In this document: in pieces, positions 4,895-37,575 of the stretch | Layout of the letters: the number at the start of each line of letters is the position of its first letter | Numbering within the stretch: position 1 is the stretch's first letter | NCBI GenBank assembly: GCA_009885085.1 | Contig: VFLK01000033.1 | Span: 7,135-71,134, forward strand | Origin: Minisyncoccota bacterium | GTDB taxonomy: Bacteria; Patescibacteriota; Microgenomatia; UBA1400; PJMF01 | DNA length: 64,000 nucleotides | Reading direction: 5' to 3' | Program-made: the position numbers and the translations under genes | Notes under the pieces: model-generated | The model's database searches: none | What the model was told of the DNA's origin: nothing | The model's input: the letters and a program-made list of their open reading frames with translations, nothing else

Positions 4895-6922
4895 ATGCTA
4901 AATAAGAATGTTGTTCAAGACACAGCTGAAAATGCATCTAACTCAAAAATAGGGCCTGTTGATGTTGCTAAAAAAGAAACCATAAAAATTGAGGCCAAAG
5001 CGGCCATGAAAAAAACAAGTTTTAAATCGAAAGTTTCTGCATACTTTGCTAATCATCCAAAAATGAAACCAATCTTAATATCAGTCGGAATATTTTTTCT
5101 GCTATTAATTTCTGTCACTTCAGTTCTAGGATTCAAAACTTACAAAACCGTTGTTGAGATTAAAGACAAAGCAAACGTTCTCCAAGTCAAAGCAATGGAA
5201 ACATACGATCTGTTTAAAGCTCAAAATCTCCCAGCAGTTCAAGAAAATCTCAACCAAATTGATAAAGAGCTAGCAGAAACAAAAGATATGTACTCGCAGT
5301 TAGCTTTTTACTCCTACGTGCCTTTTGCTAAAAACTACTACAATGATGGACTTCATGGATTTAATGCCGCTCAATCAGGACTTTCGGCAGGGAAAAAATC
5401 AGTTGAAGCGATTATACCATATGCTGATGTTTTGGGATTTTCAGGTGAAGGAACATTCACAGGTGGCACCACAGAAGACAGATTGAAAGTGATTCTAGAA
5501 ACCTTAGATAAAATTTCTCCAATTCTTGATGACATAGCAAATAACTTAAAAACTGTTGAATCAGAATTAGCATTAATCAATCCTCAAAGATATCCAGAAA
5601 CTCTAAAAGAATTTGAAGTTAGATCAAACATTGTCAAAGCCCAAGAATTAAGTTCAGGAGCTGTTTTGGCACTAACCGAATACAGACCAGTTATTGAAGA
5701 ATTACCAAGCGTAGCTGGAGCAGGGGGCGTAAGAAAAAAATACTTAATATTATTTCAAAATGACAATGAGCTAAGACCAACTGGTGGATTCTTAACTGCC
5801 TATGCTGTGATTAATGTTGAAAATGGAAAAGTCGAGGCAGAATCATCTAACGATATTTATGAACTCGATCAATTGTTTTCCAAAAAAATCCCTATCCCTG
5901 CAGAGCTCGGTAGATATTTAACCACAGAAAAATATTGGCACTTAAGAGATATGAATGTTTCTCCTGATTTAAAATTATCGATGGATGTGTTCTTCGAAAA
6001 TTACTCAACTGTGCCAAATCAAGCAAAGGAAGTAGATGGAATTATTACAATAGATACTCATTTCTTGACCAATCTAATGAAAGTCTTAGGACCAGTTGAA
6101 GTCCCAGGATATGGAACTTTCAGCGCAGAAAATGATCCAAGATGTGACTGTCCTCAGATAATCTACGTTCTTTCCGAAATTATTACCCGTCCAACTCCTT
6201 ATTTAAGAAACGATAGAAAAGGAATACTTGGTCCGCTGATGAGATCATTACTTACCAAAGCTTACACCGCCCCTAAGCAAACATGGCCAGAATTATTTCA
6301 AACAGGTTTTGATAGTATCCAGAACAGACACGCTCAATTTTACTTTATTGACGAAAAAGCTCAAGCTGCCGCTGAACTTGCTAATGTAGCTGGAAGAATG
6401 AATCCTCCAAGTGATGGCTCAGATTTCTTAGCAATCATTAATTCAAATTTGGGTGGTGCAAAATCTAATTTATTTATTGATTATGATGTTGTTCAAACTG
6501 TTTCAGCTCCTGAAAACGGAATGCTAGAAAAAACCGTTGAAATTACTTACAGAAATACTCATAAAGCAGACAACTGCAATCTTGAAGCAGGAAAGTTATG
6601 TTTAAATTCAACTTTGAGAGACTGGACAAGACTTTATGTTCCAGAAGGCTCTGAGTTGCTCACTTCACAAGGTTTCTTGGAAGATGCTAAAACTTACACA
6701 GAAAATGGTTTTACAGTCATCGATGGCTTCTTCACGCTTGAACCAATGGCAACAGCGAAATTGAAGTTTATCTATAAAGTTCCATATGCTGATAATGTAA
6801 ATTATAAAGTCGAAATATGGAAACAAGGCGGAATAGAACAATTTGAAACTCTGATGGATGTTACTGGCGGACAAGAAAAAATTACTGTCCAAAGGGACAC
6901 CACCTACGAGACTTTCTTTTAA
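4895..6922 (+). CDS. large membrane-anchored extracytoplasmic protein of unknown function (possibly DUF4012-like, cell-envelope polysaccharide associated)
   Basis: 675 aa, one TM helix near residues 60-80 and the rest predicted outside; sits in the polysaccharide cluster; family assignment is tentative. Confidence 0.4.
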   Translation: MLNKNVVQDTAENASNSKIGPVDVAKKETIKIEAKAAMKKTSFKSKVSAYFANHPKMKPILISVGIFFLLLISVTSVLGFKTYKTVVEIKDKANVLQVKAMETYDLFKAQNLPAVQENLNQIDKELAETKDMYSQLAFYSYVPFAKNYYNDGLHGFNAAQSGLSAGKKSVEAIIPYADVLGFSGEGTFTGGTTEDRLKVILETLDKISPILDDIANNLKTVESELALINPQRYPETLKEFEVRSNIVKAQELSSGAVLALTEYRPVIEELPSVAGAGGVRKKYLILFQNDNELRPTGGFLTAYAVINVENGKVEAESSNDIYELDQLFSKKIPIPAELGRYLTTEKYWHLRDMNVSPDLKLSMDVFFENYSTVPNQAKEVDGIITIDTHFLTNLMKVLGPVEVPGYGTFSAENDPRCDCPQIIYVLSEIITRPTPYLRNDRKGILGPLMRSLLTKAYTAPKQTWPELFQTGFDSIQNRHAQFYFIDEKAQAAAELANVAGRMNPPSDGSDFLAIINSNLGGAKSNLFIDYDVVQTVSAPENGMLEKTVEITYRNTHKADNCNLEAGKLCLNSTLRDWTRLYVPEGSELLTSQGFLEDAKTYTENGFTVIDGFFTLEPMATAKLKFIYKVPYADNVNYKVEIWKQGGIEQFETLMDVTGGQEKITVQRDTTYETFF

Positions 6923-7023
6923 GATCAACGCTAACTTGAAAATTACAATTCCTGCAGAAACTTAAGATAAAACCTGTTATATATTTAGTTGCAGGCTCGG
7001 TCAAATATTATCGACCTAAAAAT

Positions 7024-7566
7024 ATGAAATCAAACACCTTCTCTACAAAGGGCATTGTTTTAAAAAGAGTCAACGTTGGCGAAACTGACCGAATAATAAA
7101 CTTACTCACTCAAGAATATGGCAAAATGACTTGTGTGGCCAAAGGAGTGAGAAAACTTAAATCAAGTAATCGGGCATACTTGGAACCAGGGAACTTAATT
7201 AAAGCTTTCATGATTCAAACTAAATCGCTTCCATTGTTAACTCAGGCAACACTCATCGATGACTGCTCAAGAATGAAACAAACATTGGGATCTTTTCGAC
7301 AACTATCGCAAATGTTAGAAATATTTGAAAAACTTTTTGTCGAACAAGAACTTGAACCAGAGATATTTGCGAAAGCGCTGGAATTGAGGAAAAAAATATC
7401 TTCTAGCACAGCCTCTGGCTCTTATATAAAAGAAGCATTAACTGAAATAATTACTGGCTTAGGATTTCAAGACCCCAAAGATTCGAAGTATCTGACAATT
7501 ACTGACTATATTTCGGCCCTTTCGGACAGAAAAATGAAGAGCTTTGATTATCTTAATGTTAAATAA
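7024..7566 (+). CDS. recO: short DNA repair protein RecO-like
   Basis: N-terminus GIVLKRVNVGETDRIINLLTQEYGKMTCVAKGVRKLKSS matches the RecO OB-fold N-domain; only 180 aa. Confidence 0.55.
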   Translation: MKSNTFSTKGIVLKRVNVGETDRIINLLTQEYGKMTCVAKGVRKLKSSNRAYLEPGNLIKAFMIQTKSLPLLTQATLIDDCSRMKQTLGSFRQLSQMLEIFEKLFVEQELEPEIFAKALELRKKISSSTASGSYIKEALTEIITGLGFQDPKDSKYLTITDYISALSDRKMKSFDYLNVK

Positions 7567-7639
7567 TTGAATATAAAAACCTGACACAAGGTGAATCGCT
7601 CTAGCGAGAGAAGGTAGCCTGGGCTATAATAACTTTCAT

Positions 7640-9070
7640 ATGCCTGAAGAAAACAATAAATTGAAATCACAACCAACACTTGAAGAAATTGTAAGTCTAT
7701 CTAAAAGACGCGGATTTGTATTCCAAACATCAGCAATTTATGGTGGACTTGCCAATTCATATGACTACGGGCCACTTGGAGTAGAACTTCTTAGAAATAT
7801 TAAAAACGAGTGGTGGCGAGAATTTATCAACAAACGAGCAGACATGGTGGGAATTGATTCCCAAATCTTGCTTCATCCAAAAACTTGGGTTGCTTCGGGA
7901 CATGTAGGTTCCTTTAGTGATCCTTTAGTCGATGATGTAGTTACCAAAAAACGCTACCGAGCCGATCATTTAATTGAAGAATGGGTTGAACGACAACTCA
8001 AAAAAGGGAAAGAGGAATGGAACGGATTTGTTGTTGAAAATTTAAGTCTTGAAGAAATGGCAAAATTTATTAGTGACAATCAAATCTTGAGTCCTGACGG
8101 AAATAAAATTACTGAACCAAAATCTTTCAATCTTCTTTTTGAAACTGAGATTGGCACCATTGCCGGCGAAAAAACAATCATTTATTTGCGTGGAGAAACC
8201 GCCCAAGGAATATTCACAAATTTTAGTCAAGTTTTAGATTCTACTAGAGTTCAACTACCTTTCGGCATTGGTCAGATAGGGAAAAGCTTTAGAAATGAAA
8301 TTACCACCGGGCAATTTATCTTTAGAACGCTCGAGCTTGAGCAAGCAGAAATTGAATACTTTTTTAATCCAAATAATCAAGATTGGCATGAACTCATGGA
8401 AACTTGGAAACAGCAAATGATGAGTTTTGCAGTAAATACACTGGGTATAAAAACTGAGAATTTAAGATGGCGAAGGCATTCAGATAGCGAAAGAAGTTTT
8501 TATAGCAAAGACACCTATGATTTAGATTACAACTTCTCATTTGGTTGGAAAGAACTTTGGGGAGTTGCCTACAGAACTGACTATGATTTGAAACAACACA
8601 TGGAATTTTCAGGTCAATCACTCGAATATAGAGATCCATTCTCTGGCGAAGTTTTTGTACCACACGTTATGGAACCGGCACTCGGTATTGGCAGAGCTCT
8701 CTTGATGGTATTAACCGATGCTTATTACAAGGATGAAGAAAAAAATCGTATAGTTCTAAAACTTAAGCCATCTTTGGCTCCATATAAAGCCGCAATTTTT
8801 CCATTAGTTAAAAATAAACCAGAAATTGTTTCCCAAGCTCAAGAATTATTTAATTTGCTTGGTCAGAAGTTCTCCTGTACTTGGGATGCAAGAGGAAATA
8901 TTGGCAAAAGATACTTAACTCAAGATGAAATTGGTACTCCATTCTGTATCACAGTTGATTATCAAACTTTAGAAGACAAAACAGTGACTATTAGAGATAG
9001 AGATACTACCGAACAGACTAGAATGCCAATTGAGAAACTTGAAAGCTATATTGAATCCATGATAAAGTAA
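7640..9070 (+). CDS. glyQS: glycyl-tRNA synthetase (class II, dimeric GlyQS type)
   Basis: RRGFVFQTSAIYGGLANSYDYGPLGVELLRNIKNEWW N-terminus is diagnostic of GlyRS. Confidence 0.85.
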   Translation: MPEENNKLKSQPTLEEIVSLSKRRGFVFQTSAIYGGLANSYDYGPLGVELLRNIKNEWWREFINKRADMVGIDSQILLHPKTWVASGHVGSFSDPLVDDVVTKKRYRADHLIEEWVERQLKKGKEEWNGFVVENLSLEEMAKFISDNQILSPDGNKITEPKSFNLLFETEIGTIAGEKTIIYLRGETAQGIFTNFSQVLDSTRVQLPFGIGQIGKSFRNEITTGQFIFRTLELEQAEIEYFFNPNNQDWHELMETWKQQMMSFAVNTLGIKTENLRWRRHSDSERSFYSKDTYDLDYNFSFGWKELWGVAYRTDYDLKQHMEFSGQSLEYRDPFSGEVFVPHVMEPALGIGRALLMVLTDAYYKDEEKNRIVLKLKPSLAPYKAAIFPLVKNKPEIVSQAQELFNLLGQKFSCTWDARGNIGKRYLTQDEIGTPFCITVDYQTLEDKTVTIRDRDTTEQTRMPIEKLESYIESMIK

Positions 9071-9076
9071 GGTTCT

Positions 9077-9889
9077 ATGAAAAATCTGAAAATCCCTAAT
9101 AAAAAAGTTCTTACGATTATTGGTGTGATTTTATTAGTTGTTGGCATAGGATTATTTGTTAAATCTCGATCAAAAGACACTGTTGTCGCTGAGGCTCCAA
9201 AGCTTAAAAAGACTAAAATTACCGAACCATTAAATATTATTGACGTCAGCGAAAGACCATATGTTGTAATTTCGCCAAATACAGATGGCAAAAACATTAC
9301 CGTGGCGGTCAACACTATAAAGAAGGATGCGTCAGCAGTTGATTACGAACTTGAATACCAGGCTGGTTCTTTATTGCAGGGTGTTTTTGGTTCAATTGAT
9401 CTAACTAAACTTCCAGCAAGTACAAAACAGCTTTTGGGCAGTTGCAGCGCCGGTGGTGCCTGTACATATCATGAAGATGTAAAGGGCGGTCACTTAACTA
9501 CTAGATTTAACGGCAAAGAAAATTATGCATTAAAATCTGAGTGGAAATATATTGAAAATAAGACAGGTGAAGATTCTCTGAGTTCTACAGATGCTAAATT
9601 TCAAATTAATTCAAAGGAACTCAAAGCTGCAAAACTAGCGGTTGTTTTTAATACTCCTGGATATCCAGAAAAGCTTGATGGAACTATTAATTCCGATCCT
9701 TATTCATTACAAACCATTCCAGTAGTTTCTGGTAAAGCTACTCTAACCATGAGATCCAAAGAAGAAGGCAAGTTGGTAATCTTAGGCTGGAACGGTACCA
9801 AGTGGACAGAGTTTGCCGGCGAAGTTGATGGTAAATCCATTACAGCTGAAGTAGATTTAATGGAACTTTATGTTGTTGTCAGTAAATAA
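9077..9889 (+). CDS. hypothetical membrane-anchored/secreted protein
   Basis: N-terminal TM or signal-anchor (VLTIIGVILLVVGIGLFV); no family recognised. Confidence 0.4.
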   Translation: MKNLKIPNKKVLTIIGVILLVVGIGLFVKSRSKDTVVAEAPKLKKTKITEPLNIIDVSERPYVVISPNTDGKNITVAVNTIKKDASAVDYELEYQAGSLLQGVFGSIDLTKLPASTKQLLGSCSAGGACTYHEDVKGGHLTTRFNGKENYALKSEWKYIENKTGEDSLSSTDAKFQINSKELKAAKLAVVFNTPGYPEKLDGTINSDPYSLQTIPVVSGKATLTMRSKEEGKLVILGWNGTKWTEFAGEVDGKSITAEVDLMELYVVVSK

Positions 9890-10814: not shown

Positions 10815-11082
10815 AATGTGCGTAAGTATACCTCAAGGATAGAACTTTAACCACTAAAAATATACAGAAATTCGCACAATGATCCTACTTGCTGGACATT
10901 AGTAACTGTGATAATTTAATGAAGCTGTGGAATGTAGTGAAAATCTACAACTGTGCCGCAACGGTGTATTTTGATATTTTTCAAAATAAGTCCGATCTTC
11001 AGCAAATATTTTATTGACGAGCATCAAAATTGTGATTATTTATTTAGCCTTTGTACTAATAAAATAAACACCCGAAAAAATG

Positions 11083-11108: not shown

Positions 11109-11195
11109 CTTCAGTAATCTAGCGGCACAGAATTTCCAGAAGCAAAAGCAATTGAACAGATTGCCTGTAAAAATATATTCTTGGAAAGGAATAGT

Positions 11196-11915
11196 ATGCT
11201 AGAAAAAACTGAATCACTCGATATGTATCACCAGTTTAATGGAGAAAATCCGCTAGGATCTTTCAAAATTGAAGATGTTCTTCAAATAACTGGATTAAAT
11301 ACTTTTCTTGATGAAATGAATGCTTTATTTAAAGAATCAAGTCCTTTTCTCAATCAAGTGTCCCTTTTGTTTACTCACTATAGAAGACAGCTTGCATCCT
11401 TGCGTATTGAGATGCTAAATAATTTAGCCGCAAAACAATTACTTCAAGATTTTGGAGTAGCGGGCATTGGAATAGATGATAAGGGAAATGCTGACTCTCT
11501 GATCACTCAACAAATATTATCAGTCCATGGTAAATTAGTTGTTAATTTAGAAACAACTTCCATAGAACTTCCAAGTTCTGTGGCTAAATTCACCACGTTC
11601 ATTGTCGCTGTTCAAAAAGAAATAATTCGGATTTTAGTAGATTCACAAAAATCTATTTCTGCTGAAATAGAAGCAAAAGAAACTGAAGAAACAAAAGTAG
11701 ATAATCATCTATCTAGTCATACAAATACACACCATCGTTTGGCATCTGAATCGATCCAAGTTTCAAGACAAGCTCAAGAAAAAAGAAAAAAAGCAACACA
11801 TATTGAAAAAGAAAGTGCACACAATCAATTAAAAACTTTATTTTCTTATCTAAAAAACATCTTTAATCCAGTTGCTATGGGAACTCGAGAATTCATGTCA
11901 ATGACTGCGCAATAG
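11196..11915 (+). CDS. hypothetical protein
   Basis: ORF 11181..11915; the second ATG at 11196 has a GGAAAGGA Shine-Dalgarno-like sequence; no family recognised. Confidence 0.45.
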   Translation: MLEKTESLDMYHQFNGENPLGSFKIEDVLQITGLNTFLDEMNALFKESSPFLNQVSLLFTHYRRQLASLRIEMLNNLAAKQLLQDFGVAGIGIDDKGNADSLITQQILSVHGKLVVNLETTSIELPSSVAKFTTFIVAVQKEIIRILVDSQKSISAEIEAKETEETKVDNHLSSHTNTHHRLASESIQVSRQAQEKRKKATHIEKESAHNQLKTLFSYLKNIFNPVAMGTREFMSMTAQ

Positions 11916-11947
11916 AACTTAAGTAAATTATAATACTCTGTTTGTTT

Positions 11948-11977
11948 AAAAAAACTCCCAACTGGGAGTTTTTTTAA
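11948..11977. terminator. bidirectional intrinsic terminator (A-run, ctccca-ac-tgggag, T-run)
   Basis: hairpin flanked by AAAAAAA and TTTTTTT; same gggagttttt core as the 11083 hairpin. Confidence 0.6.
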
Positions 11978-12094
11978 CTTCTATAGGCCTCACTATTTAG
12001 CTTGTTTCGGTTATTCTTAGTCTTTACAACTTACTTGAAGTGTTAGATACTTTCATCCAGATAGTGGGAAAGATTGGTAAATAAGCCTTAGAAT

Positions 12095-12529
12095 ATGTTT
12101 ATAGGAAAATTTTATCACAGTTTAGAGGAGAAAGGCAGAATTTCTTTACCACAGAAATTCAGACGAGAAAGCAACTCCTGGATAGTAACCAGGGGACTAG
12201 ACGGAGGACTCTTTATATTCAAAGAAGAAGACTTCGAAAAAGAAATTGCTAAATTCGAGTCACGCACATTCACAAAGAAAAATAACCGCGACTTTATAAG
12301 ATTGATGACTAATGAAGCACAGGCAATCAAGCCAGACAAAACAGGTCGAGTACAACTGCCCGAGTACTTGATAGAGTTTGCCAAATTAAAAAAATCTATC
12401 GTCGTTGTTGGAAGTCTTTCCCGTCTAGAAGTATGGGATAGGGATCTATACCACAACTACATAGATGGCATCGAAGACAAAACTGAGGAAATTGCCGAGC
12501 AACTAGAAGAAGGAACTACGATGATTTAG
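12095..12529 (+). CDS. mraZ: transcriptional regulator MraZ
   Basis: MFIGKFYHSLEEKGRISLPQKFR N-terminus; first gene of the dcw cluster. Confidence 0.85.
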   Translation: MFIGKFYHSLEEKGRISLPQKFRRESNSWIVTRGLDGGLFIFKEEDFEKEIAKFESRTFTKKNNRDFIRLMTNEAQAIKPDKTGRVQLPEYLIEFAKLKKSIVVVGSLSRLEVWDRDLYHNYIDGIEDKTEEIAEQLEEGTTMI

Positions 12530-12534
12530 TTTTT

Positions 12535-12599
12535 AAATAAATGTCATAAATGCGAACATTCAGGACTTGTTCCTGCGAGAGCATTTAAGATGTTTATTT
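12535..12599 (+). promoter_or_regulatory. long imperfect nested stem-loop between mraZ and rsmH
   Basis: arms aaataaatgtcataaatgc / gcatttaagatgtttattt (17/19) with an inner hairpin cagga-cttgt-tcctg. Confidence 0.3.
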
Positions 12600-12628
12600 A
12601 AAAAAACTAAATCAAAATAAAAGATACT

Positions 12629-13564
12629 ATGACAGAAAACGCACACATCACAGTTTTACTAGAGGAAGCTACAGAAGCCCTTCTCGTTAAAAAAGATCAT
12701 TGGTACATTGACGCAACTTTCGGCAAGGGTGGACACACTCAAAAGATCTTAAATGCAGGTGGAAAAGTCATTGCTTTCGACATGGATAAGGATGCAATCT
12801 CAGCAGGCAATGAATTATTTGCTTCAGCAATAAAACCTGGCAACTTAATCTTAATCAGAGAAAACTTTGCTCAAATTTCACCAGTCATTCAGTCACTAAA
12901 GGAAGATGGACAAATAAACCAAATCGATGGAGTACTATTCGATTTTGGAACAAGTACCGAGCAATTAAAATCTGAAGACCGAGGTTTTAGTTTCGAGGGA
13001 GACGGACCATTAGATATGAGAATGGACGATCGATTAGGTGTCCAAGCCAAAGATTTGCTCGCACTAATTCCAGCTGACCAACTCGAAGAGCTTTTCAGAG
13101 ATTTGGGAGGCGAAACAGATGCAAGAAGAATTGCTAGGACTATCAAAAGCAGTCCAGTTCCGATCACTACAACGAGACAATTAAGCGACCTAATTTTAAA
13201 AATTAGTGGCAAACAAAGAGGAAAACTTCATCCAGCAACAAAAGTTTTCCAAGCACTGCGAATTGCGGTTAATACAGAGCTAGAAAATATAATGATGGGC
13301 TTGCCTCAAGCATTAGAAGTACTAGCTAAAAAAGGCAGAATTGTAACTATAGCTTTTCATGAGGGCGAAGACAGAGAAGTTAAAACTACATTCAAATTAT
13401 GGGAAGAAGAAAATAAGGGTGAAAGTCTTACTAAAAAACCTGTAGTTCCAACTGCAGAAGAAATTAAAAATAATCCTAGATCCAGAAGCGCAAAAATGAG
13501 GATCTTCGAAAAAAATACTTCGGATCAACAAATATTGGACCAACAAACAAATGAAATTGAATAA
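12629..13564 (+). CDS. rsmH: 16S rRNA (cytosine1402-N4)-methyltransferase RsmH (MraW)
   Basis: HITVLLEEA...IDATFGKGGHT signature and position after mraZ. Confidence 0.85.
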   Translation: MTENAHITVLLEEATEALLVKKDHWYIDATFGKGGHTQKILNAGGKVIAFDMDKDAISAGNELFASAIKPGNLILIRENFAQISPVIQSLKEDGQINQIDGVLFDFGTSTEQLKSEDRGFSFEGDGPLDMRMDDRLGVQAKDLLALIPADQLEELFRDLGGETDARRIARTIKSSPVPITTTRQLSDLILKISGKQRGKLHPATKVFQALRIAVNTELENIMMGLPQALEVLAKKGRIVTIAFHEGEDREVKTTFKLWEEENKGESLTKKPVVPTAEEIKNNPRSRSAKMRIFEKNTSDQQILDQQTNEIE

Positions 13565-28482: not shown

Positions 28483-28494
28483 TTTTAATCTTTT

Positions 28495-28586
28495 TATGAT
28501 TTGTTGTAACGTTAATTAGTTTCGCTAGATTTAGCGAATAATTGTAAATCAACGCTCCACAAGATTAACTTATACAACAAATCATA
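28495..28586. repeat. 14-bp perfect inverted repeat (tatgatttgttgta ... tacaacaaatcata) with 64-nt spacer containing an inner hairpin, downstream of ftsZ
   Basis: read directly. Confidence 0.6.
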
Positions 28587-28652
28587 AAATTTATTAACTC
28601 TATTTCTCACAAAAAAAATCTGAAATGTTCTATAATAAATAGAATTAGAGTG

Positions 28653-28726
28653 CGGGTATAGTTCATCGGTAGAATGCTAGCTTCCCAAGCTGGATAGAGG
28701 AGTTCGACTCTCCTTACCCGCTCCAA
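28653..28726 (+). tRNA. tRNA-Gly (anticodon CCC), CCA encoded
   Basis: manual cloverleaf: acceptor gcgggta/tacccgc, D-arm gttc/gaat, anticodon stem ctagc/gctgg, loop ttCCCaa, T-arm aggag-ttcgact-ctcct, discriminator t, CCA; TATAAT at about 28632 upstream. Confidence 0.85.
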
Positions 28727-28777
28727 ATGTTCAAAGTTCATAAGAAAATTACTAGGAAATTACATAAAATAACAATT

Positions 28778-29167
28778 ATGTACAAAAAACTATTAAAACT
28801 TGCCGCATGGAAAAAGATACTTATTGCTGTGGTTTTAGGGCTAATTACATTTGTTGGTTGGTTCGTATACGAAATTACTACTGATGAACCACCTAATTTC
28901 TTTCCCTTAAATGATGTCCAAGCAGAGTATAGAGGAAATAATGTTCAATGGAAAGAAGACCACAGTAATTCTAACTTTTTTAGCATAACAATTGGAAAAA
29001 GTAATATTGACCTGGAATCTTATATAGGTAAAAAAGTCAAAAACCTGTTTGAGCACCTAATAATATGGCGACTCCTACAGGCACTGATATGGAAAGATTG
29101 TCATAAAAGACTAGGCCAGTTCTGGCCAATCCAATTTCTCCTGCAACAACCAAACCAAAACAAGTGA
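28778..29167 (+). CDS. small hypothetical membrane-anchored protein immediately 3' of tRNA-Gly
   Basis: ORF 28727..29167 abuts the tRNA; internal ATG 28778 followed by TM helix ILIAVVLGLITFVGWFVY; no family recognised. Confidence 0.35.
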   Translation: MYKKLLKLAAWKKILIAVVLGLITFVGWFVYEITTDEPPNFFPLNDVQAEYRGNNVQWKEDHSNSNFFSITIGKSNIDLESYIGKKVKNLFEHLIIWRLLQALIWKDCHKRLGQFWPIQFLLQQPNQNK

Positions 29168-29317
29168 TCAGAAATATGACCAATTTTATTGTTGGGCTTA
29201 TCATTGTTTCTCTCCCATCTCCCGACCAAGGATCTGAGGTTTCTTGAAGATTAAATCGACTCTTCTACAGAATTTGTAAAATGTCGATTCACTCTCCAAG
29301 ATATTTGCATTATACAT

Positions 29318-29357
29318 CAATGATAAATAGGAAATCGTTATTTATCATTGTTATAAT
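29318..29357 (+). promoter_or_regulatory. perfect 12-bp palindrome (caatgataaata-N8-tatttatcattg) abutting a TATAAT -10 box; candidate operator and promoter of the downstream four-gene operon
   Basis: palindrome 29318..29350 and TATAAT 29352..29357 read directly; about 160-nt leader to the 29518 start. Confidence 0.4.
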
Positions 29358-29517
29358 CAAAAAATGCCAACCTCAATCTAAGTTTTTATCCAACTTCCTC
29401 ACCAATTCCAGCTTTCCAAAATGAGCTGACAAAATATAAAATCTCCAAGGATACTATCCAATATTCACTTTACACATCTTATTTACTTCCAGTCATAAAA
29501 AGTGTAGTTTTAAATAT

Positions 29518-31893
29518 ATGATATTAAATGATGCTAGAAATGTTGACCATCAATGGAATAGAAATTCAACAAAACAAGAAATTCTTGCTTCTGAAAAAGA
29601 TGATGCAGATATTATTGGCAATATATTGGAATTTACAGCAGATACAAAAATATTTTTAGCACACCTACGATATTCAAACGAAGAAGTTCTAAAAAAAATT
29701 GGCATCAAAACAAAAGACCAAATAGATGCTTGGACATCCTTCGTATATTCATCTATAGAATTATTTCACGGCCTAGCTACAAAAGGAAAAGGTGAATGGG
29801 GTATGACTTGGGGTTTAACAGCAAAAGATCCCAAAGATATTGAAAAGCTTCAAAATAAAGTCATAAACAGTATTGTTTATGAAACACTCAGAGATGTACA
29901 GCCTGGAAAAGAAAAACCAGCTATAAAATATGAGTACAAAACTAATAAAGATGGTAGCTTAAAGTCGGTTGAACCACTAGCTGACTCAAGACGTGACCCC
30001 ATTACCTTTCGCGTACTCAGAGGTGGGCCACCCCCACTAGATTTTATAGATATAAACATATCGATGAGTACAATTATTTCCTCAAATGCAAATACTGATA
30101 ACAAAGATATTAATCCGTTGGACATAATTCCCTGGAAAGGAATTATGGATGGCAACGAAAAAATACTTGAAATGCTTAAAACAATAACCGGTATCAAAAT
30201 TGGACCACCAAGATATCTTAAGGACTGGCATGAAGAGCCAGACGACGATGAAAATCATAAAACTGACAGAACAGGAGAATTTTTCAAACCTGATGTTTTG
30301 ATTGGCAAAGGTGATAAAAATTGGCGACTAACAAAATTTGGCAATGACGCAAGAATCATGATGTTGGCTGAGTATGGTGATAAGTTTGGAAGATCTGCTG
30401 CTATTAATGTTTCATTTGCTCAGCATGCCTCTGGAGATGGATTGGAGTTAATGGGCAGCGAATCAGCAAAAAAAGAAGACATGAAATCTGCCTATGACCA
30501 GACTCTTAAAAAACCAGAAATAAGAGAACTTTTAGACGAAAATGGCAAAGCAGAATCAGTCGAGGCACTTGAGTTAATTGGAGAATTTGAACCTCAAGTA
30601 TTGCCTTTCCATACACTCTTGTCTGCTAAATTTGGTCGGTTTGGGTTGGGTGACATGAGACAACAAATTGAGAGAAGAATTGCGGCAACCCAGTTTCAAA
30701 GTAAAGTCATGGCAAAATTTGGAGCAAGAGTTGATGCTATAAGAATACAAGTTGGAATTAAGTTAGACCCTGAGTTGACGGAGGCTTCCAGAAAAACAGT
30801 CAAACAAATCAAGGGAAAAGGTGTTGAAAAAATGAATGGATCTCTTTTAAATGCTATGGCACATCATCTGCATGCGGGCGAATCATGCGGCGTAATGATA
30901 CAACCAATAGAAGGTAGAACAACTCTCGTAACTGTGGGCAATAAGGTTTGGGAAAAATGGGAAAATGTCTGTGATAAATTTTCAAATGATGATCAAATAG
31001 ATAGGTTAAGAGCCTATCCAAGTATGAAAAATGGCATAAAAGTTATTAGGGATAGATTAAAAAACCTTCAATGGCTTCCAGATAGCAACGAACTTGATGA
31101 CTCAGAAACAAGCATGTGGCTAAATGAAAATATTCCAATAATAAAAAATATATTTTCTTTTGACAATGAACTTAGAAATCAGATTGAGCCGATCAGAAAT
31201 TCTGTAACAAACAGTGTAAATGAAATAACTGATGTTGATTCATTTTTAAAGAAAGTAAGAAATAAAAGCGGCGGTGTAGTCACAAATAAAAATGCCGAGT
31301 GGGACCTGAGTAGCATGACAAACAAAATGAACTTAATTATTACAAAAGCAAAAATGAATCCTAATACTCCTTTTTCAAAACTTATAATCCAAATTGATGA
31401 GACATTTAAAAATAGCAGTCAAAATGAATATCAAACAGAAGAATTTAGTAATAAAATTAAATCTCTAAACATCGCTGGAAAATTTTATCCGCTTAGAACT
31501 TTTTCACTAAATGTAAACCATGATCCAACAAGATCAAAAATAAATACAATTTTTCTTGCATGTGACCAACAAAAACTAGATGGTTTTGACTGGATACTTT
31601 CGGACACCGAACACAATGAAGAAGGATTTATCAAATCATTTGAAGCTGAGTTTGAAGACACTGCTAGTAGTATGGGAAACGTAGGTGATTTCTTTATTGA
31701 AGCTGGCAAAGACCCAAACCTAACTGCTCCTGCAATAAGTAGAGATTTGGGATTTCTAGCAGTCGTAGAAGGATGGGCAGTAAATCACACACCTAACACT
31801 GCTGCTGCAGCAAGGTCACAAATTTTTCGATCAGGGTTGCTTGAACCAGCAGACTCTGTTGGAACCGCCGTAGTCTTTCAAACAGCAACCTAA
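29518..31893 (+). CDS. large hypothetical protein (791 aa), first gene of the tRNA-Gly-adjacent operon; no TM, no P-loop, no recognisable domain
   Basis: long uninterrupted ORF; HHLHAGESCG His/Cys cluster; ends at a single TAA that is in frame with the next ORF. Confidence 0.6.
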   Translation: MILNDARNVDHQWNRNSTKQEILASEKDDADIIGNILEFTADTKIFLAHLRYSNEEVLKKIGIKTKDQIDAWTSFVYSSIELFHGLATKGKGEWGMTWGLTAKDPKDIEKLQNKVINSIVYETLRDVQPGKEKPAIKYEYKTNKDGSLKSVEPLADSRRDPITFRVLRGGPPPLDFIDINISMSTIISSNANTDNKDINPLDIIPWKGIMDGNEKILEMLKTITGIKIGPPRYLKDWHEEPDDDENHKTDRTGEFFKPDVLIGKGDKNWRLTKFGNDARIMMLAEYGDKFGRSAAINVSFAQHASGDGLELMGSESAKKEDMKSAYDQTLKKPEIRELLDENGKAESVEALELIGEFEPQVLPFHTLLSAKFGRFGLGDMRQQIERRIAATQFQSKVMAKFGARVDAIRIQVGIKLDPELTEASRKTVKQIKGKGVEKMNGSLLNAMAHHLHAGESCGVMIQPIEGRTTLVTVGNKVWEKWENVCDKFSNDDQIDRLRAYPSMKNGIKVIRDRLKNLQWLPDSNELDDSETSMWLNENIPIIKNIFSFDNELRNQIEPIRNSVTNSVNEITDVDSFLKKVRNKSGGVVTNKNAEWDLSSMTNKMNLIITKAKMNPNTPFSKLIIQIDETFKNSSQNEYQTEEFSNKIKSLNIAGKFYPLRTFSLNVNHDPTRSKINTIFLACDQQKLDGFDWILSDTEHNEEGFIKSFEAEFEDTASSMGNVGDFFIEAGKDPNLTAPAISRDLGFLAVVEGWAVNHTPNTAAAARSQIFRSGLLEPADSVGTAVVFQTAT

Positions 31894-31899
31894 GCTGGA

Positions 31900-32613
31900 G
31901 TGCCAGGACTTGGTGCAATGGGAAACAGCATGGCCATCGCTGACACCAGAGAAACATCTGGACTCAAGGAATCACTTGATCATCCTGCAAAAATGATGGA
32001 TGTATTATTGCCATGGTTGAGAGGAAATGAAAATGTAAAAACTGCTTTTAAAAATTTTCTTGGAGTAAACTTAGACATAGGTAACGAAAAAACAAAAGAA
32101 GAAAAGAATAATCGCAAAAAATTATCACTCTTTCAAAAAATGCTTTCTGAAGATGATTTTGCCTGTTTTAACGACAATAACTCAGAAAAAATTGTTAGAA
32201 GAAATGATTTAAGAATCTGGGGACCAAAAAGAGATGAAGAAAAAAGATTAACAGCTAGTGATTTAAGCGTCAGATATAAACATCATCTAGAGGGAGAACT
32301 TTTATTTGATATGTGGAATCAATTTATAGATGCAGTTGATCAAAATAAAGTAAAAATTGATGATAGAACAAAAGAATCTATCAAAAAATTTAACGGAACG
32401 GGTTTTAAAGAAATGTGGGGAGCAATGATAAAGTTTAGAGCTTTAGACATGCAACATCAAACCGCAAAAGCAAATCTGATCATGAGACTGTGGTTAAATC
32501 CCCATGATCACGATGAGTCTTCGTGGGAAATTTATGTAAGACAATTTAACACTGCAAGAGAATCCTATCGAAACATGGAAAAGGTATTTTCAGTTTTTGG
32601 GAAAGAATACTAA
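31900..32613 (+). CDS. hypothetical protein (237 aa), in the same frame as the upstream ORF and separated from it by one TAA plus two codons; possible C-terminal extension or split gene
   Basis: GTG 31900 (or ATG 31918) start; no convincing spaced SD; frame identity with 29518..31893 computed from coordinates. Confidence 0.5.
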   Translation: MPGLGAMGNSMAIADTRETSGLKESLDHPAKMMDVLLPWLRGNENVKTAFKNFLGVNLDIGNEKTKEEKNNRKKLSLFQKMLSEDDFACFNDNNSEKIVRRNDLRIWGPKRDEEKRLTASDLSVRYKHHLEGELLFDMWNQFIDAVDQNKVKIDDRTKESIKKFNGTGFKEMWGAMIKFRALDMQHQTAKANLIMRLWLNPHDHDESSWEIYVRQFNTARESYRNMEKVFSVFGKEY

Positions 32614-32615
32614 TC

Positions 32616-34739
32616 ATGATTTACGAACCTGATGGCTCATTATCTAACCTAACACTTCCAAGAGATGAAGTGTTAATTGCAATCTATGAAAAACAGAATG
32701 AAGCTTTATTCCTAATTCTTGGAGCTGACAAACCACCAATATTCACTAAAGAATTTGCCGCCAAAGAGTTAGCAATTCAACCACAAGAAACTCCAGGATT
32801 ACTAAAAAGAATTTGGTTTGAAAAGGATGAAAAAAATAAGACGTATAAATTGTGCGGTGTAGGGAAGTGGGGAGGTCAAAATTCAAAACTTGCAGAAATA
32901 TCTATAAATCTTGATATGGAAGAAGCAAATCGACTAATGAGTCTAGCTTCTAATAATAGAATTGAAGAGATAAACTCCTTATCAAATAATTCTGAATTAG
33001 CAAAAACCCCAAAAATTGAAAATTACAGAAAAATGCTAGAAGAAGCTGAAAAAATATTTTTTGCAATGCTAACAGATTATTCTGGAAAAATTGTAGTTGA
33101 TGAAACTGAAAGTGAAAAAAGTAAAAAAAGCTCTGAAGTAAAAAAGGATACGGCGCCTTTAGACACAATTGATGTTCAAATCATGCCAACTGAGAAAACT
33201 GATAAAAAAGATCTACTAAACAAATTAGCTGAAACTATGGAGCTTCGGGTGTTATTTTTAAATAGAAATAACAACGAAATTTCTTACGCTGATATATCCG
33301 AAGTTATAAAATTATTAGTAAATCCAGAAAATGTTGAAAAATATTTTAATAATTTAGGAATTGGCTCAGATGTCATTAGTGAAAAGGAACATTTTGAAAA
33401 TGAACTAAAAAAAATGACGAATGAGTATGCCAGCGGAAAAGTTAAAAACTTGCAAACAATTTTGGAAACAAGAAAACAAAATCAGCTCCAAACAATTTCG
33501 CAGATGATTAATACAATTGTTGAACAAATACCAATGCTTGCTAAAAGTCCAAAAACTTTTGACATTATAAAAAATGCTATGGATCTTGATAATGACTTAG
33601 CCGAGCAACTTGTCAAAGAATATAACGAAACTTCCACAATATCATTTGAAACTGTTTTCGATAATCTCGAAGGTGCAACTGAGTTATTTGAAGCAAAAGT
33701 ATTAGAAATAATTCTAGCAGATTATGAGGATCAAATTAATTCGCTAAAAATTGAATTTAATAAAATAATAGCTTCGCAGACAATCTCAAGGTGTATTGAG
33801 TGGGCCCAACCTCCTTTTTCTACTCCAGTTGATTCAAATATTCAACTCAACGTAGATCCTACTTTATTAGATCAAGCAATTAAATTTTCGTTTAGTCCAG
33901 AAAAGTGGGATATTAATTTAGTTACTTATGCACTAAATAACACTAGACATTCAGATGGCGAAATTGGAAGTAAAATACCAGGCAATAATATTTCAGGACT
34001 ACGAAAAACTAGAGAGAAATTAGATGACTATTTAAAACAGATGGTTGAAAAAAGTAATACGGAAAGTTTTGGTGCTCAATTTAAAGCCTGGATGAAAAAA
34101 TACAGCGATGGAAATATTAACCCAGATTATTACTTATTAAGTTTTACCTCGGTTTTAAAAACACCTTGGAAAAAACTTGAAGAAGAAATCTGGAAAAAAA
34201 CAATGGCCGAGTGGTTAAAATCAAATAAAGAAAAACTAAAAGCCATTGTTACTAACGAACTTAGTAAAAAAGGTGGCGCAATAGATGAAATCAAAAGTCA
34301 TGATAAAGCGATAGCAAAATCAACTGAAATATGGTTTAAATGGCGTCATGAATTGAAAAAAATATTACAAGAAAAATCACTAAATGCTCAAACGGATGTT
34401 GATATTCTAGTTGACTGGTCGCTAAAACAACAATACCCTGACGATAGAATGAAAACAAAAACAAATGAAGTTGCAATTGATTGGGATAAGGACAAAGAAC
34501 TGATAGAAAAACTTAAAGTTGATCATCTAAGAATTTGGAATATAATTTTTCACACCAGAAATATTGCCAAAAGTCTCAACTTAGGTATAGACACAAATGT
34601 TGTTCAATGGCTAAAAAGAATTTCTTTTCAAGCAAAAATGAGCAATCATTATGGATCAGATACTTTTCTCACAAGCGAAGGTGTGGAGTGGAGAGAAAAT
34701 ATTGAGGCCAAAGCCAAAGAAACAACTTCACAAAAATGA
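32616..34739 (+). CDS. large hypothetical protein (707 aa), K/E-rich and probably mostly alpha-helical, no TM or P-loop
   Basis: starts 2 nt after the upstream stop; stop overlaps the next start (ATGA). Confidence 0.6.
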   Translation: MIYEPDGSLSNLTLPRDEVLIAIYEKQNEALFLILGADKPPIFTKEFAAKELAIQPQETPGLLKRIWFEKDEKNKTYKLCGVGKWGGQNSKLAEISINLDMEEANRLMSLASNNRIEEINSLSNNSELAKTPKIENYRKMLEEAEKIFFAMLTDYSGKIVVDETESEKSKKSSEVKKDTAPLDTIDVQIMPTEKTDKKDLLNKLAETMELRVLFLNRNNNEISYADISEVIKLLVNPENVEKYFNNLGIGSDVISEKEHFENELKKMTNEYASGKVKNLQTILETRKQNQLQTISQMINTIVEQIPMLAKSPKTFDIIKNAMDLDNDLAEQLVKEYNETSTISFETVFDNLEGATELFEAKVLEIILADYEDQINSLKIEFNKIIASQTISRCIEWAQPPFSTPVDSNIQLNVDPTLLDQAIKFSFSPEKWDINLVTYALNNTRHSDGEIGSKIPGNNISGLRKTREKLDDYLKQMVEKSNTESFGAQFKAWMKKYSDGNINPDYYLLSFTSVLKTPWKKLEEEIWKKTMAEWLKSNKEKLKAIVTNELSKKGGAIDEIKSHDKAIAKSTEIWFKWRHELKKILQEKSLNAQTDVDILVDWSLKQQYPDDRMKTKTNEVAIDWDKDKELIEKLKVDHLRIWNIIFHTRNIAKSLNLGIDTNVVQWLKRISFQAKMSNHYGSDTFLTSEGVEWRENIEAKAKETTSQK

Positions 34740-37207
34740 TAAGTCGAGAAACAAGCAAACCACAATCCCGCAACGATTTTCTATCGATTCCTGGTCTTGA
34801 TGAAAGAGCACAAGCAACAATTTTTGCCAAAGAAATAGAATTATTGCCTCCAAGAATGCGAAATTATATTGCTATTTTGATGCGAGAAAATAGCAGAGCT
34901 GGCATATTTAAAAAAAGACAATCTGAAGAAAATCTTACAGCACTACTTGAGCCAGCTAGAGAACTGATTAGTTTGTTACATATAACTGAAAATATGCCAG
35001 AGGTTGTGGAAAACCTCCATATCAGGTGGGCAAAAATTATTGAAACTCAACCATATAATGAAAAAACAAGACGAAGAGATATAAGAGAAATATGGTTAGA
35101 TATAATTGAAAAAGGTGTTAAAACCGCGCAAACAACATTTATCTGCAGAGAAATTAGAGACCGAATGATCTCCAGAAGCTATCTCGATAAACCCAGTCAG
35201 GCAATTTCCAAATTTGATACAGAAATACTAAATAAATTAGCTGCCTGGTGCTATGAAGCCCAAGGAGATAAATATAAAGTTGAAAATGGTTACCAGCTAT
35301 TTAAAGAAGATTTGGGAAAAATACTAGAAATTTCACAAGATACTGGCATATCGGCAGAAAATTATTTTAATCACAGAGACAAATCCATAATGCCATGGTT
35401 TTTTATGCTGTTGGTTGGTGATAATTCTGAATTTAGTAAATTCATGTATGAAAAAATAGGCAATAAAGAATCAATGAGACCACACATAAACCTTGGAGTG
35501 ACAGGTATTGATATAGCATTAGGCGAGAATGGACTTGAAGAAAGACCAGACGATCTTTACAAACGTCTTGCTGATCTTTTATATCCTGACGGCTATCCAG
35601 AAGGAATTAAAGGAAAAATTAAAAATTCAGAACAAAGAAGTATTTTTATTGAGAAAGGCAGCGAACTTAAGTGTAAAGTAGCAGACCCAGGTTCAGACTC
35701 ATATGAAAGAGCTTATATCAAAAAGGAAATTGAAATCCTAAAAACTGATTTCCAAGATGATGGCATAGAAATGCACGACAATTTTGGCTATGAAAAACCA
35801 GCTCTTTTTATGTCCTTAGATATTAATTTAATGTCTGATCTCATGGGAATAACTGGTAGCTGGACCAAGTGGCTTGAAGCAATGGCCCATATTAGAGAAC
35901 AAGAAACAACTTGCAACATACCAATTTCTCCAGATGAAGCATTAACTTTGATGAACTGGGATTTAGAGTCTGATTTAAAAAATAAAATCCTCACAAAAGC
36001 AATGCTGATTGCTCATTTCAATAGAGCTGCTGGCTTAGAACAACATCACGGCTATGGAGGAAATAAAAATATTTATAATGATCAATTTTGGGCTAGACTA
36101 GCTTACAATTTATCATTGCCAGAAAATAAAGATGGAGCTCACACTTTGACTCCAGAAATATTAGCTAAAATTTCAGAATCTTCTCAGGACGAAGAAGAAA
36201 TGGCGCAAAAACTTGGATTCTTACTCTCTGGCAGAGTTACTACAATTAATCTCAGTGTGATGGGTGCAAATAGAACTGGAAAAGATGAACAAGCAAGTAC
36301 GATGGAAAGTTCTTCGTATGCAGTCACAGAATCTTGCAGAGCTTATGGCCTTTATGAGCAAGGAAAAGATCCTAAGCCAACAGTTGCTTCTGGACATTCC
36401 ATGGGTGCTCAAATTTTAGAAAGAGCTTTGTTACTTTTGCCTCAAAGTGTAAGAAATTGGGTTGACTTTCTTTCCGTAACTGGAGTCTATACAAGTGAAA
36501 TGAGTGCAATGTCTTTTCTTAAAAAAGGAATGAATAAACTTCACCCATTATTAATTAAACTTGTAACAAATAAGAACATTACTAAACAACAGTTGGGGAA
36601 ATTTATGTCAGGCGCTGGAGAAATCTTACCAATTAAAAAAATAATACTAAAAGGCGCCACCTATTCTCAAGCCAGAACACCAATGGATTTCAAGATTGGA
36701 TTACCAATTGCAGCGGCGCATGAAATAAGTTTGAATTCAGCTCCAGAATATTTATTAGGACAAATGGGAGCAATTGATAACAGCAAAGATAGACATTCAT
36801 TTGATGAACTTGCGTCAACAATATCTACATTTGGTAAAGACATGGTAACAAGAACGGTTGGACGAATTGATTCTGTCCTACATCCTGGAAAATCAATGAG
36901 GGCTCTAAAAAATTCAGACAAAAATATTAGAATAAAAGATTTTGATAAAATGACTATTCCTGAAATGGTTAAGTGGGTAAATGAGACTGAAGTGAATACT
37001 GGTGAACCAATTGAAGTTATCCTGGCTAAAGTTCCACACTACATACAAACGACTGAACTAGGTAGATGGTTGATTAGATTGCAACACATGAAAAAACTAA
37101 AATTACATACTTATGGATATAGAAAAAAAGGTGAAAATTCAGAAGCAACTCAAAATATCAGCAATACAACAAGATCAATTACCGAATTATTTATGGGGAG
37201 AAATTAA
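34736..37207 (+). CDS. large hypothetical protein (823 aa) with a GHSMG (GxSxG nucleophile-elbow-like) motif; candidate serine hydrolase or acyltransferase domain
   Basis: ATGA overlap with the upstream gene; GHSMG encoded at 36392..36406 in frame. Confidence 0.55.
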   Translation: MISRETSKPQSRNDFLSIPGLDERAQATIFAKEIELLPPRMRNYIAILMRENSRAGIFKKRQSEENLTALLEPARELISLLHITENMPEVVENLHIRWAKIIETQPYNEKTRRRDIREIWLDIIEKGVKTAQTTFICREIRDRMISRSYLDKPSQAISKFDTEILNKLAAWCYEAQGDKYKVENGYQLFKEDLGKILEISQDTGISAENYFNHRDKSIMPWFFMLLVGDNSEFSKFMYEKIGNKESMRPHINLGVTGIDIALGENGLEERPDDLYKRLADLLYPDGYPEGIKGKIKNSEQRSIFIEKGSELKCKVADPGSDSYERAYIKKEIEILKTDFQDDGIEMHDNFGYEKPALFMSLDINLMSDLMGITGSWTKWLEAMAHIREQETTCNIPISPDEALTLMNWDLESDLKNKILTKAMLIAHFNRAAGLEQHHGYGGNKNIYNDQFWARLAYNLSLPENKDGAHTLTPEILAKISESSQDEEEMAQKLGFLLSGRVTTINLSVMGANRTGKDEQASTMESSSYAVTESCRAYGLYEQGKDPKPTVASGHSMGAQILERALLLLPQSVRNWVDFLSVTGVYTSEMSAMSFLKKGMNKLHPLLIKLVTNKNITKQQLGKFMSGAGEILPIKKIILKGATYSQARTPMDFKIGLPIAAAHEISLNSAPEYLLGQMGAIDNSKDRHSFDELASTISTFGKDMVTRTVGRIDSVLHPGKSMRALKNSDKNIRIKDFDKMTIPEMVKWVNETEVNTGEPIEVILAKVPHYIQTTELGRWLIRLQHMKKLKLHTYGYRKKGENSEATQNISNTTRSITELFMGRN

Positions 37208-37240: not shown

Positions 37241-37575
37241 AAATCCGCTTGAGTTCTGCCACATAATGTGGATATCACAGAACAAGGTGAGGGAAGAACA
37301 TTTTGATGTTTTGTTAATTAGCTCAAAAAAAAGCCTGATAACAAAACAAAAAATAACTAGATCTCTCCGGGTAAGCCCGTAATTGCTGCAAACAAGAGAT
37401 TTGGTTTTTAAATCGCAACTTTTTATGCCCAAAGCATAATAAATTGCATTTCTTCCAAATAAATAGAGGTGGTACCGCCACACTCAACATAAAGTTGAAT
37501 TGAAGGCCCTCTTATAACTAGTTTAAATCGTGCGTCGTGCGTATGAAATGAGCTAGTTATAAGTGGGCTTTTTTG
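37241..37575 (+). ncRNA. T-box riboswitch leader of ileS
   Basis: AUC specifier followed by A at 37274..37277; T-box consensus match AAAUAGAGGUGGUACCGCC at 37461..37479; antiterminator pairing AGAGG/CCUCU and GCC/GGC; 15-bp terminator stem 37507..37521 / 37553..37567 followed by CTTTTTT, overlapping the antiterminator 3' strand. Confidence 0.7.

Follow-up and report, generated by a model that had tools for sequence, protein, structure and literature searches.

A block of large genes lies between tRNA-Gly(CCC) and ileS in the genome of a Minisyncoccota bacterium (GenBank assembly GCA_009885085.1), on a 64,000-nt stretch of contig VFLK01000033.1 (positions 7,135 to 71,134, forward strand) that was analysed at its full length and is called the window here. 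We lean towards reading the block as a mobile, fast-evolving acyltransferase/hydrolase operon of three genes, g12, g3 and g4, in a Patescibacteria genome of the Pacebacteria/Woesebacteria type. In the window, ftsA and ftsZ precede the block and ileS follows it. An earlier reading made from the letters without database searches (the sequence-only reading) had described four coupled open reading frames (ORFs) of 791, 237, 707 and 823 aa, with products of no recognisable family, as a candidate undescribed system beside the tRNA.

Gene content of the block

The ORF list agrees with the sizes and positions given for the four ORFs, and their junctions are found as described: TAA GCT GGA GTG between ORF1 and ORF2 (the stop and two codons before a GTG), TAA-TC-ATG between ORF2 and g3 (a 2-nt gap), and an ATGA overlap between g3 and g4. 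The coding features, all from the ORF list, are as follows.

29518..31893, + strand: N-terminal 791 codons of g12 (ORF1), with a premature TAA at 31891-31893
31894..32613, + strand: C-terminal 239 codons of g12 (ORF2), in frame past the stop; the ORF as listed runs 31900-32613 (237 aa)
32616..34739, + strand: g3, 707 aa
34736..37207, + strand: g4 (ORF4), 823 aa, with the ATGA overlap with g3

A word-indexed homology search returned a single relative each for ORF1 and ORF4, both in the 'Candidatus Woesebacteria' metagenome-assembled genome (MAG) GCA_018000035.1 and both 84% identical. In that locus (L001), where the genes lie between ftsA-ftsZ-tRNA-Gly and ileS-ftsW as the block does in the window, g12 is undivided: its 1031-aa product (P0005) is followed by genes of 716 and 832 aa, with the same 2-nt gap and 4-nt overlap. 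The two g12 sequences align over 1031 codons with zero gaps. ORF1 is 84% identical to P0005 residues 1-790, the window TAA aligns with a Ser codon (TCT) and the 'GTG start' of ORF2 with GTA. P0005 and all full-length homologues carry the part encoded by ORF2 joined directly to the N-terminal part, and most of the 11 distant g12 homologues are undivided (~950-1250 aa), a few being shorter and apparently partial. Because L001 reads through without a gap and most distant homologues are undivided, ORF1 and ORF2 are a single gene, g12 (~1031 aa), interrupted here by a nonsense mutation. The four claimed proteins thus give way to an operon of three genes.

In the g12 model presented below, the position of the stop corresponds to a linker of low confidence (residues 792-801). 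Since the segment past it keeps purifying selection in the pairwise comparison with L001, with a ratio of non-synonymous to synonymous substitution rates (dN/dS) of 0.10 against 0.13 before the stop, the mutation is either recent or tolerated. Translation could re-initiate at an ATG seven codons past the stop, which has AGGA before it. An alternative genetic code (UGA read as Gly) was considered for the junctions and rejected, as ORF1 ends in TAA and code 11 leaves the housekeeping genes on either side unbroken.

Folds and motifs of the encoded proteins

We modelled g12 through its L001 orthologue P0005, which is 84% identical and of equal length, rather than from the split window copy. AlphaFold2 with a 12-sequence alignment gave a mean predicted local distance difference test score (pLDDT) of 69.8 and a predicted template modelling score (pTM) of 0.72, with confident regions at residues ~92-500 and ~770-1030. 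Foldseek returned no match to this model at E<=0.001; its top 50 matches all belong to the CAT-like acyltransferase superfamily, the best being choline acetyltransferase (E 0.011, probability 0.91), and the predicted domain has the two-lobed, pseudo-dimeric form of the CAT fold. Two features are placed on the g12 gene from these data.

29791..31017, + strand: predicted CAT/condensation-like acyltransferase domain of g12 (~aa 92-500)
30424-30441, + strand: catalytic-type motif QHASGDG of g12 (His303, Asp307, Gly308)

Conservation across the family is highest in residues ~50-470, and the best-conserved motif is PTHLPxDG, with H303 and G308 present in 12/12 members. In the model this motif follows a beta-strand and precedes a helix; the HHxxxDG catalytic motif of the CAT/condensation superfamily has this form and occupies the corresponding place. 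The g12 family does not conserve the first His of HHxxxDG and has Thr or Gln there. The window protein reads QHASGDG and keeps the catalytic-type residues. Because the top Foldseek matches, the conserved HxxxDG-like motif and its placement in the model agree, residues ~92-500 of g12 probably represent a new and very divergent family of the CAT/condensation/carnitine acyltransferase superfamily.

Sequence profiles gave no corresponding signal. The Pfam families Condensation, WES_acyltransf, Carn_acyltransf, Transferase, 2-oxoacid_dh and CAT gave no match at E<=1 with the window protein or at E<=0.1 with the 12 members, and a profile search of the PDB with g12 found nothing. The remaining ~530 residues, predicted as long helices and a small beta unit, had no informative fold match, and a fold search against BFVD returned coiled-coil noise only. 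The His/Cys cluster HHLHAGESCG, to which the sequence-only reading had drawn attention in gene 1, was considered as a metal site and discarded as irrelevant, since it is not conserved in the family alignment.

The GHSMG motif that had been noted in gene 4 turned out to be a conserved nucleophile-elbow motif with an invariant Asp and His downstream. It lies at 36392-36406 (residues 553-557, with Ser555), followed by Asp712 (36869) and His768 (37037), giving the order Ser, Asp, His with spacings of 157 and 56 aa. GHSM[GSH]G is present in every locus with available sequence (5/5 partner genes), the elbows reading ASGHSMGAQ in the window, IGHSMSGQ in L005, WGHSMGGR in L089 and L006, and IGHSMHGW in L003. 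In the seven-sequence alignment A6, H662, D712 (within G..D.VL) and H768 (within PHY) are invariant. An oxyanion-hole-like motif, HGWTGN, occurs in the L089 and L006 homologues and is unclear in g4 itself. In a PDB profile search with g4, cutinase-like alpha/beta hydrolases came top at a non-significant E of ~1.5, their alignment matching exactly at the catalytic GHSMGG. A GHSMG elbow is characteristic of lipases and type II thioesterases. As the order and spacing of the three residues are those of alpha/beta hydrolases, we consider it reasonably likely that the C-terminal half of g4 is a Ser555-Asp712-His768 hydrolase of this type, a reading drawn solely from the motifs because the fold model of g4 failed.

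The middle gene, g3, encodes a K/E-rich protein, as the sequence-only reading had noted, and is 77% identical to its L001 orthologue (dN/dS 0.22). Profile libraries recognised no domain in it and it has no internal repeats; when g12, g3 and g4 were compared, no shared domains or internal repeats were found. Distant homologues of g3 lie directly 3' of the g12 homologues in L003 and L006 (phmmer ~1e-12), and at its position in the other loci there are proteins that are unrelated or barely, if at all, recognisable. Of the three components of the module, g3 is the most variable.

Across the four ORFs of the block, no significant match was obtained in Pfam, NCBIfam, PADLOC or PHROGs (where matches were noise at E>0.02), and phmmer and profile searches of all PDB sequences gave nothing significant for g12, g3 or g4. 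A BrxC/D match (E 0.002, 33 residues) and a Nup54 match were dismissed as short, sub-threshold noise. The description of the products as belonging to no recognisable family therefore stands for Pfam, NCBIfam, PADLOC, PHROGs and PDB sequences, but not at the level of fold, where the g12 model is CAT-like with an HxxxDG motif. The ORF products have no Walker A motif, and their hydrophobicity stays below transmembrane strength (maximum Kyte-Doolittle 19-residue mean 1.0-1.2). Signal peptides and transmembrane helices are absent from all three proteins, as had been read from the sequence; this fits cytoplasmic enzymes.

Distribution and mobility of the module

An exhaustive HMMER search of 1.84 billion representative proteins, made for g12 only and with the intact L001 orthologue as query, identified only 12 related clusters at E<=1e-10, the distant homologues being 20-30% identical. 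Pattern scans with the g12 and g4 alignments found no relatives in JGI metagenome contigs, IMG/VR or GTDB representative genomes, and no description of such a family was found in the literature searched. In 8/8 loci with context recovered no space separates g12 from the next gene, which either overlaps its stop or directly adjoins it, so that the tight gene coupling seen in the window is conserved even in relatives of 25-30% identity. The constant parts of the module are the CAT-like domain protein and the GHSMG protein, held in a conserved, tightly coupled operon. The partner proteins of the related loci have no PADLOC match (10 proteins) and no Pfam match. Behind the longest g12 homologue, P0020 (ERZ1426840; 1256 aa), and overlapping it by 4 nt, lies only one gene, of 1226 aa, which may be a fusion of g3-like and g4-like partners.

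In a second lineage (L003, L005, L006, L007 and L089/L090) the module lies between the same M16 peptidase and NDK genes. NDK is 85-92% identical (four loci containing it) and M16 49-71% (five), whereas g12 is only 24-41% identical, showing that the module evolves much faster than its neighbours. The M16-NDK interval is itself a hypervariable locus, with several further large ORFan genes (535-736 aa) that are not the same from one genome to the next. In L007 the module past the g12 homologue (5942-9557) is broken into ORFs of 445, 47, 164, 136 and 55 aa, of which the 164-aa ORF matches the g4 C-terminus, the rest of g4 being lost; this is a second case of decay beside the window nonsense codon. 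Its neighbours include BrnT/CopG toxin-antitoxin genes. A large serine recombinase follows the module in L089, and AbiEii and a VirD4/TrwB-like ATPase are neighbours in L004.

With the window FtsZ as a probe we collected 80 loci from GTDB species representatives (FtsZ identity 65-95%), most of them labelled Pacebacteria, Paceibacterota or Patescibacteria. In 68/80, ileS follows ftsZ on the same strand, giving a complete ftsZ-ileS interval. Many of the GTDB-representative MAGs, L010 and L012-L016 among them, are clearly Patescibacteria by their ftsA-ftsZ-ileS synteny, with FtsZ 66-87% identical to that of the window, yet their public records bear names such as 'uncultured Pseudomonadales bacterium', 'Vitreimonas sp.', 'Methylococcaceae' and 'TM6'; these names are probably labelling errors.

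None of the 68 complete intervals has g12-, g3- or g4-like content, even at E<=10. The gap from ftsZ to ileS is 0.02-6.5 kb across these genomes (median ~0.8 kb) and 9.1 kb in the window. At the tRNA-Gly site the block is present in the window and L001 only, and relatives about as close as L001, such as L010 (FtsZ 86%, gap 1.3 kb), are without it. The neighbourhood comparison bears out what the sequence-only reading had supposed: the block was inserted as accessory DNA at a variable site 3' of tRNA-Gly. A cell-division role, considered from the adjacency of ftsZ, was rejected on the same grounds, the 68 relatives having the same ftsA-ftsZ-ileS order. A prophage origin likewise found nothing in its favour among phage families (PHROGs) or on IMG/VR viral contigs.

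The ftsZ-ileS interval is a general cargo hotspot. Of the loci compared, only those of the closest relatives, L001 and L009-L014, have tRNA-Gly(CCC) 3' of ftsZ, and the cargo behind it changes from one to the next: an MFS transporter in L009, a PlsC-type acyltransferase in L010, GT87, NUDIX and inositol-phosphatase genes in L011 and a VTT-domain protein in L014. In L012 a large serine recombinase of 537 aa (Resolvase and Zn_ribbon_recom; 11425-13038, - strand) abuts or overlaps the tRNA. L009, with FtsZ 95% identical the closest relative, has a second copy of the final ~19-20 nt of its tRNA-Gly (11367-11438) at 11590-11609, 152 nt downstream; this repeat is an att-like scar left at that tRNA by an integrative element.

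Identity at 4-fold sites between the window and L001 is 0.59-0.70 in g12, g3 and g4, against 0.37-0.46, near saturation, in murG, ftsA, ftsZ, ileS and ftsW at the same GC content at these sites; synonymous divergence (dS) is 0.49-0.70 in the block and 1.3-1.7 in the flanks. With higher 4-fold identity and lower dS at equal composition, the block is younger than its flanks, and the simplest reading of these sequences is that recombination carried it from one of the two lineages, that of the window and that of L001, to the other once they had diverged. The dN/dS against L001 is 0.125 for g12, 0.22 for g3 and 0.18 for g4, indicating that the genes are real and constrained (0.12-0.22); within g12 the lowest value, 0.07, falls in residues 92-500.

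The borders of the variable interval and the sequence between the tRNA and g12 hold the following features.

28652..28725, + strand: tRNA-Gly(CCC), left border of the variable interval (ARAGORN; Rfam 59.5 bits)
28727..29167, + strand: 146-aa ORF with one hydrophobic segment, a doubtful gene or insertion remnant (ORF list; maximum Kyte-Doolittle 19-residue mean 2.21)
29375..29470, + strand: remnant of a DUF1801 gene (pseudogene), located by tblastn with the intact L001 DUF1801 protein
37281..37514, + strand: probable T-box leader of ileS, right border (RF00230, 24 bits)

ARAGORN and Rfam both find the tRNA-Gly(CCC) beside which the sequence-only reading had placed the block. The small membrane-protein gene that had been put 3' of it is doubtful: the 146-aa ORF, which begins 1 nt past the tRNA, has no Pfam match and no counterpart in L001 or the 80 related loci, and is not among the called proteins of the protein collection. 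What had been taken for a 350-nt AT-rich leader is not a dedicated leader and holds the DUF1801 remnant; the promoter and terminator scan stayed at chance level. The remnant corresponds to residues 62-93 of the 118-aa L001 protein (66% identity, E 4e-12), and in blastn L001 5235-5323 matches window 29382-29470. The N-terminal part of this gene is replaced by ~650 nt of unrelated sequence (28727-29370), which holds the 146-aa ORF. Between the ftsZ stop and the tRNA is a perfect 17-nt inverted repeat (28492-28508 and 28573-28589, 64-nt spacer) that may be a terminator or processing structure.

On the right, the T-box claimed before ileS is plausible, its match spanning the full model, but is not established at 24 bits against a gathering threshold of 93 (E 0.0022, 501-nt search); the leader is probably a divergent T-box of the Candidate Phyla Radiation (CPR) lying below the Rfam threshold. 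A terminator-like inverted repeat lies 3' of it at 37503-37571. The block has a GC content of 0.30-0.38, the same as the rest of the window. Elsewhere in the window, an AdoCbl-II (cobalamin) riboswitch at 10911-11009 (+ strand; 41.7 bits against an Rfam gathering threshold of 36.5) lies upstream of the ORF 11181-11915, which is notable given the reduced CPR genome.

Candidate function and known systems

The data above show the structure of the genes, their rarity and accessory status, purifying selection on them, their conserved coupling, and the similarity in fold and conservation of motifs; from these we infer the acyl-transfer and hydrolysis chemistry, the formation of a complex and the biological role as follows. 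The acyltransferase domain of g12 would be N-terminal and two-lobed, followed by a long helical C-terminal half; by analogy with the CAT-like superfamily, His303 would act as general base in an acyl transfer whose donor is a (thio)ester and whose acceptor is a hydroxyl or amine. Ser555 of g4 might cleave or load the same (thio)ester-linked acyl group, and g3 would be their helical, fast-diverging partner, probably serving as adaptor or as specificity subunit. All three proteins are predicted to assemble into a cytoplasmic complex.

Several observations weigh against the acyltransferase/hydrolase operon that we favour. D307 of the HxxxDG motif is present in only 6/12 g12 members, the other 6/12 having Val, Ile or Asn. 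The Pfam Abhydrolase matches, at E 0.18-0.29 in single g4 members, are below significance, and AlphaFold of g4 from two sequences reached a pLDDT of 31. There is no acyl-carrier, adenylation or CoA-ligase gene in the locus. The window shows no integrase, att repeat, second tRNA copy or GC deviation at the block, and the system may be inactive in the window genome owing to the g12 stop. The adenylation, ketosynthase and carrier Pfam domains expected of a nonribosomal peptide synthetase (NRPS) or polyketide synthase (PKS) cluster are also missing from the block and from the neighbours in 8 loci.

Because of its rarity, accessory status, exchange, rapid divergence, repeated decay and occasional Abi, toxin-antitoxin and recombinase neighbours, the module resembles systems of conflict or host interaction more than it does housekeeping metabolism, and we place a role in inter-organism conflict or host interaction slightly above lipid or metabolite remodelling. 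We tentatively propose that the module may be an undescribed CPR/Patescibacteria system of inter-organism conflict (phage defence, or a weapon or interface against the host cell) with an acyl-transfer effector from a new, highly divergent branch of the CAT/condensation superfamily, spread by recombination at tRNA- or housekeeping-flanked hotspots. A dedicated defence against phages or mobile elements, or a toxin, in which g12 would be the sensor or enzyme, g3 the variable specificity subunit and g4 a hydrolase effector, for example acylating or hydrolysing a lipid or nucleotide-linked target upon infection, is unlikely in our view. It would account for the patchy accessory spread in a variable hotspot beside a tRNA, the signs of recent horizontal exchange, the very fast divergence relative to neighbouring genes, the frequent decay in the window and L007, and the AbiEii and VirD4/TrwB-like, BrnT/CopG and serine recombinase neighbours of L004, L007 and L089. 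However, PADLOC (PADLOC-DB v2) matches no component or partner (4 window ORFs and 10 partner proteins), nuclease, NTPase, TIR, SIR2 or other common defence domains were not found, and the five second-lineage genomes keep the module between M16 and NDK, which looks like vertical descent with rapid divergence rather than island shuffling. Among the roles offered by the sequence-only reading (a defence system, a host-interaction effector, an enzymatic complex), the enzymatic complex is the one favoured, and defence, with PADLOC empty, finds no direct support.

The folds assigned to the enzymes are nonetheless classic ones for chemistry on lipids and metabolites, and CPR bacteria, being without fatty-acid and lipid synthesis, have to scavenge their lipids. 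A module in which g4, as a lipase or thioesterase, and g12, as an acyltransferase, re-tailor acyl chains scavenged from the host would suit the GHSMG elbow, given the enzymes in which it is typically found, and three proteins without signal peptides or transmembrane helices. Such a housekeeping role should nevertheless be widespread, whereas the family has only 12 clusters and is absent from 68/68 close relatives; the genes evolve far faster than their metabolic neighbours, a nonsense mutation is tolerated, and the proteins are 2-3x larger than known enzymes of this kind, with ~1000 aa of unexplained helical sequence. We regard this role as doubtful. That the ORFs are relics without current function in the window genome, left by decaying selfish or junk DNA, would explain the in-frame stop in g12, the DUF1801 pseudogene just upstream and the fragmented copy in L007. 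It is very improbable against a dN/dS of 0.07-0.23 over all parts (0.10 after the stop), reading frames that, the stop apart, run unbroken for 7.7 kb without a frameshift against L001, and the retention of catalytic-type residues.

In the acyltransferase/hydrolase operon, both enzymes probably fall within well-known superfamilies at the level of fold; by sequence, they lie outside every curated family tested. The architecture, a ~1000-aa CAT-like protein with a variable partner and a large GHSMG protein in a CPR mobile hotspot, is not described in the libraries or the searched literature. There being three genes, two of them with inferable chemistry, the claim of four unrecognisable proteins loses force, whereas the claim that an undescribed accessory system occupies a tRNA hotspot gains from the analysis. 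The genomes of CPR/Patescibacteria are small and leave a large part of their gene content without an assigned function. The 7.7-kb block, ~1% of such a genome, is tied here to a putative chemistry, His-dependent acyl transfer with a Ser-hydrolase, and to an evolutionary behaviour: it is rare, accessory, recently exchanged and fast-evolving. If it serves conflict or host interaction, it would be among the first lineage-specific systems of this kind for these episymbionts and would add an acyltransferase-based mechanism; if it remodels lipids, it would bear on how lipid-auxotrophic CPR cells tailor the lipids they scavenge. In either role, g12 is likely to represent a new, very divergent CAT/condensation family missed by current sequence-profile libraries.

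Compared with the CAT-like superfamily (NRPS condensation domains, PapA5, WS/DGAT, carnitine and choline acyltransferases, BAHD and E2 cores), g12 is without detectable sequence-profile similarity, and its version of HHxxxDG has Thr or Gln for the first His and has lost the Asp in half of the members. The g12 domain is fused to ~530 aa of helical and beta sequence of unmatched fold, its locus lacks a carrier protein, adenylation domain or PKS/NRPS context, and the family is confined to a handful of CPR metagenome bins. With the alpha/beta-hydrolase (thio)esterases and lipases (type II thioesterases, cutinase-like polyester hydrolases), g4 shares the GHSMG elbow, the Ser-Asp-His order and a typical spacing, and its L089 and L006 homologues share the oxyanion-like HGW.G. 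It differs from them in that Pfam Abhydrolase and Thioesterase stay below significance and in its size, 823 aa with a ~430-aa helical N-terminal extension. Unlike tRNA-adjacent genomic islands, the window copy is without integrase, att repeats or GC deviation, and the block with DUF1801 sits identically in L001. Like them, the block lies 3' of a tRNA, in an interval whose content varies between close relatives, and has a history separate from that of its flanks; at the same tRNA, relatives carry a serine recombinase (L012) and a duplication of the tRNA 3' end (L009).

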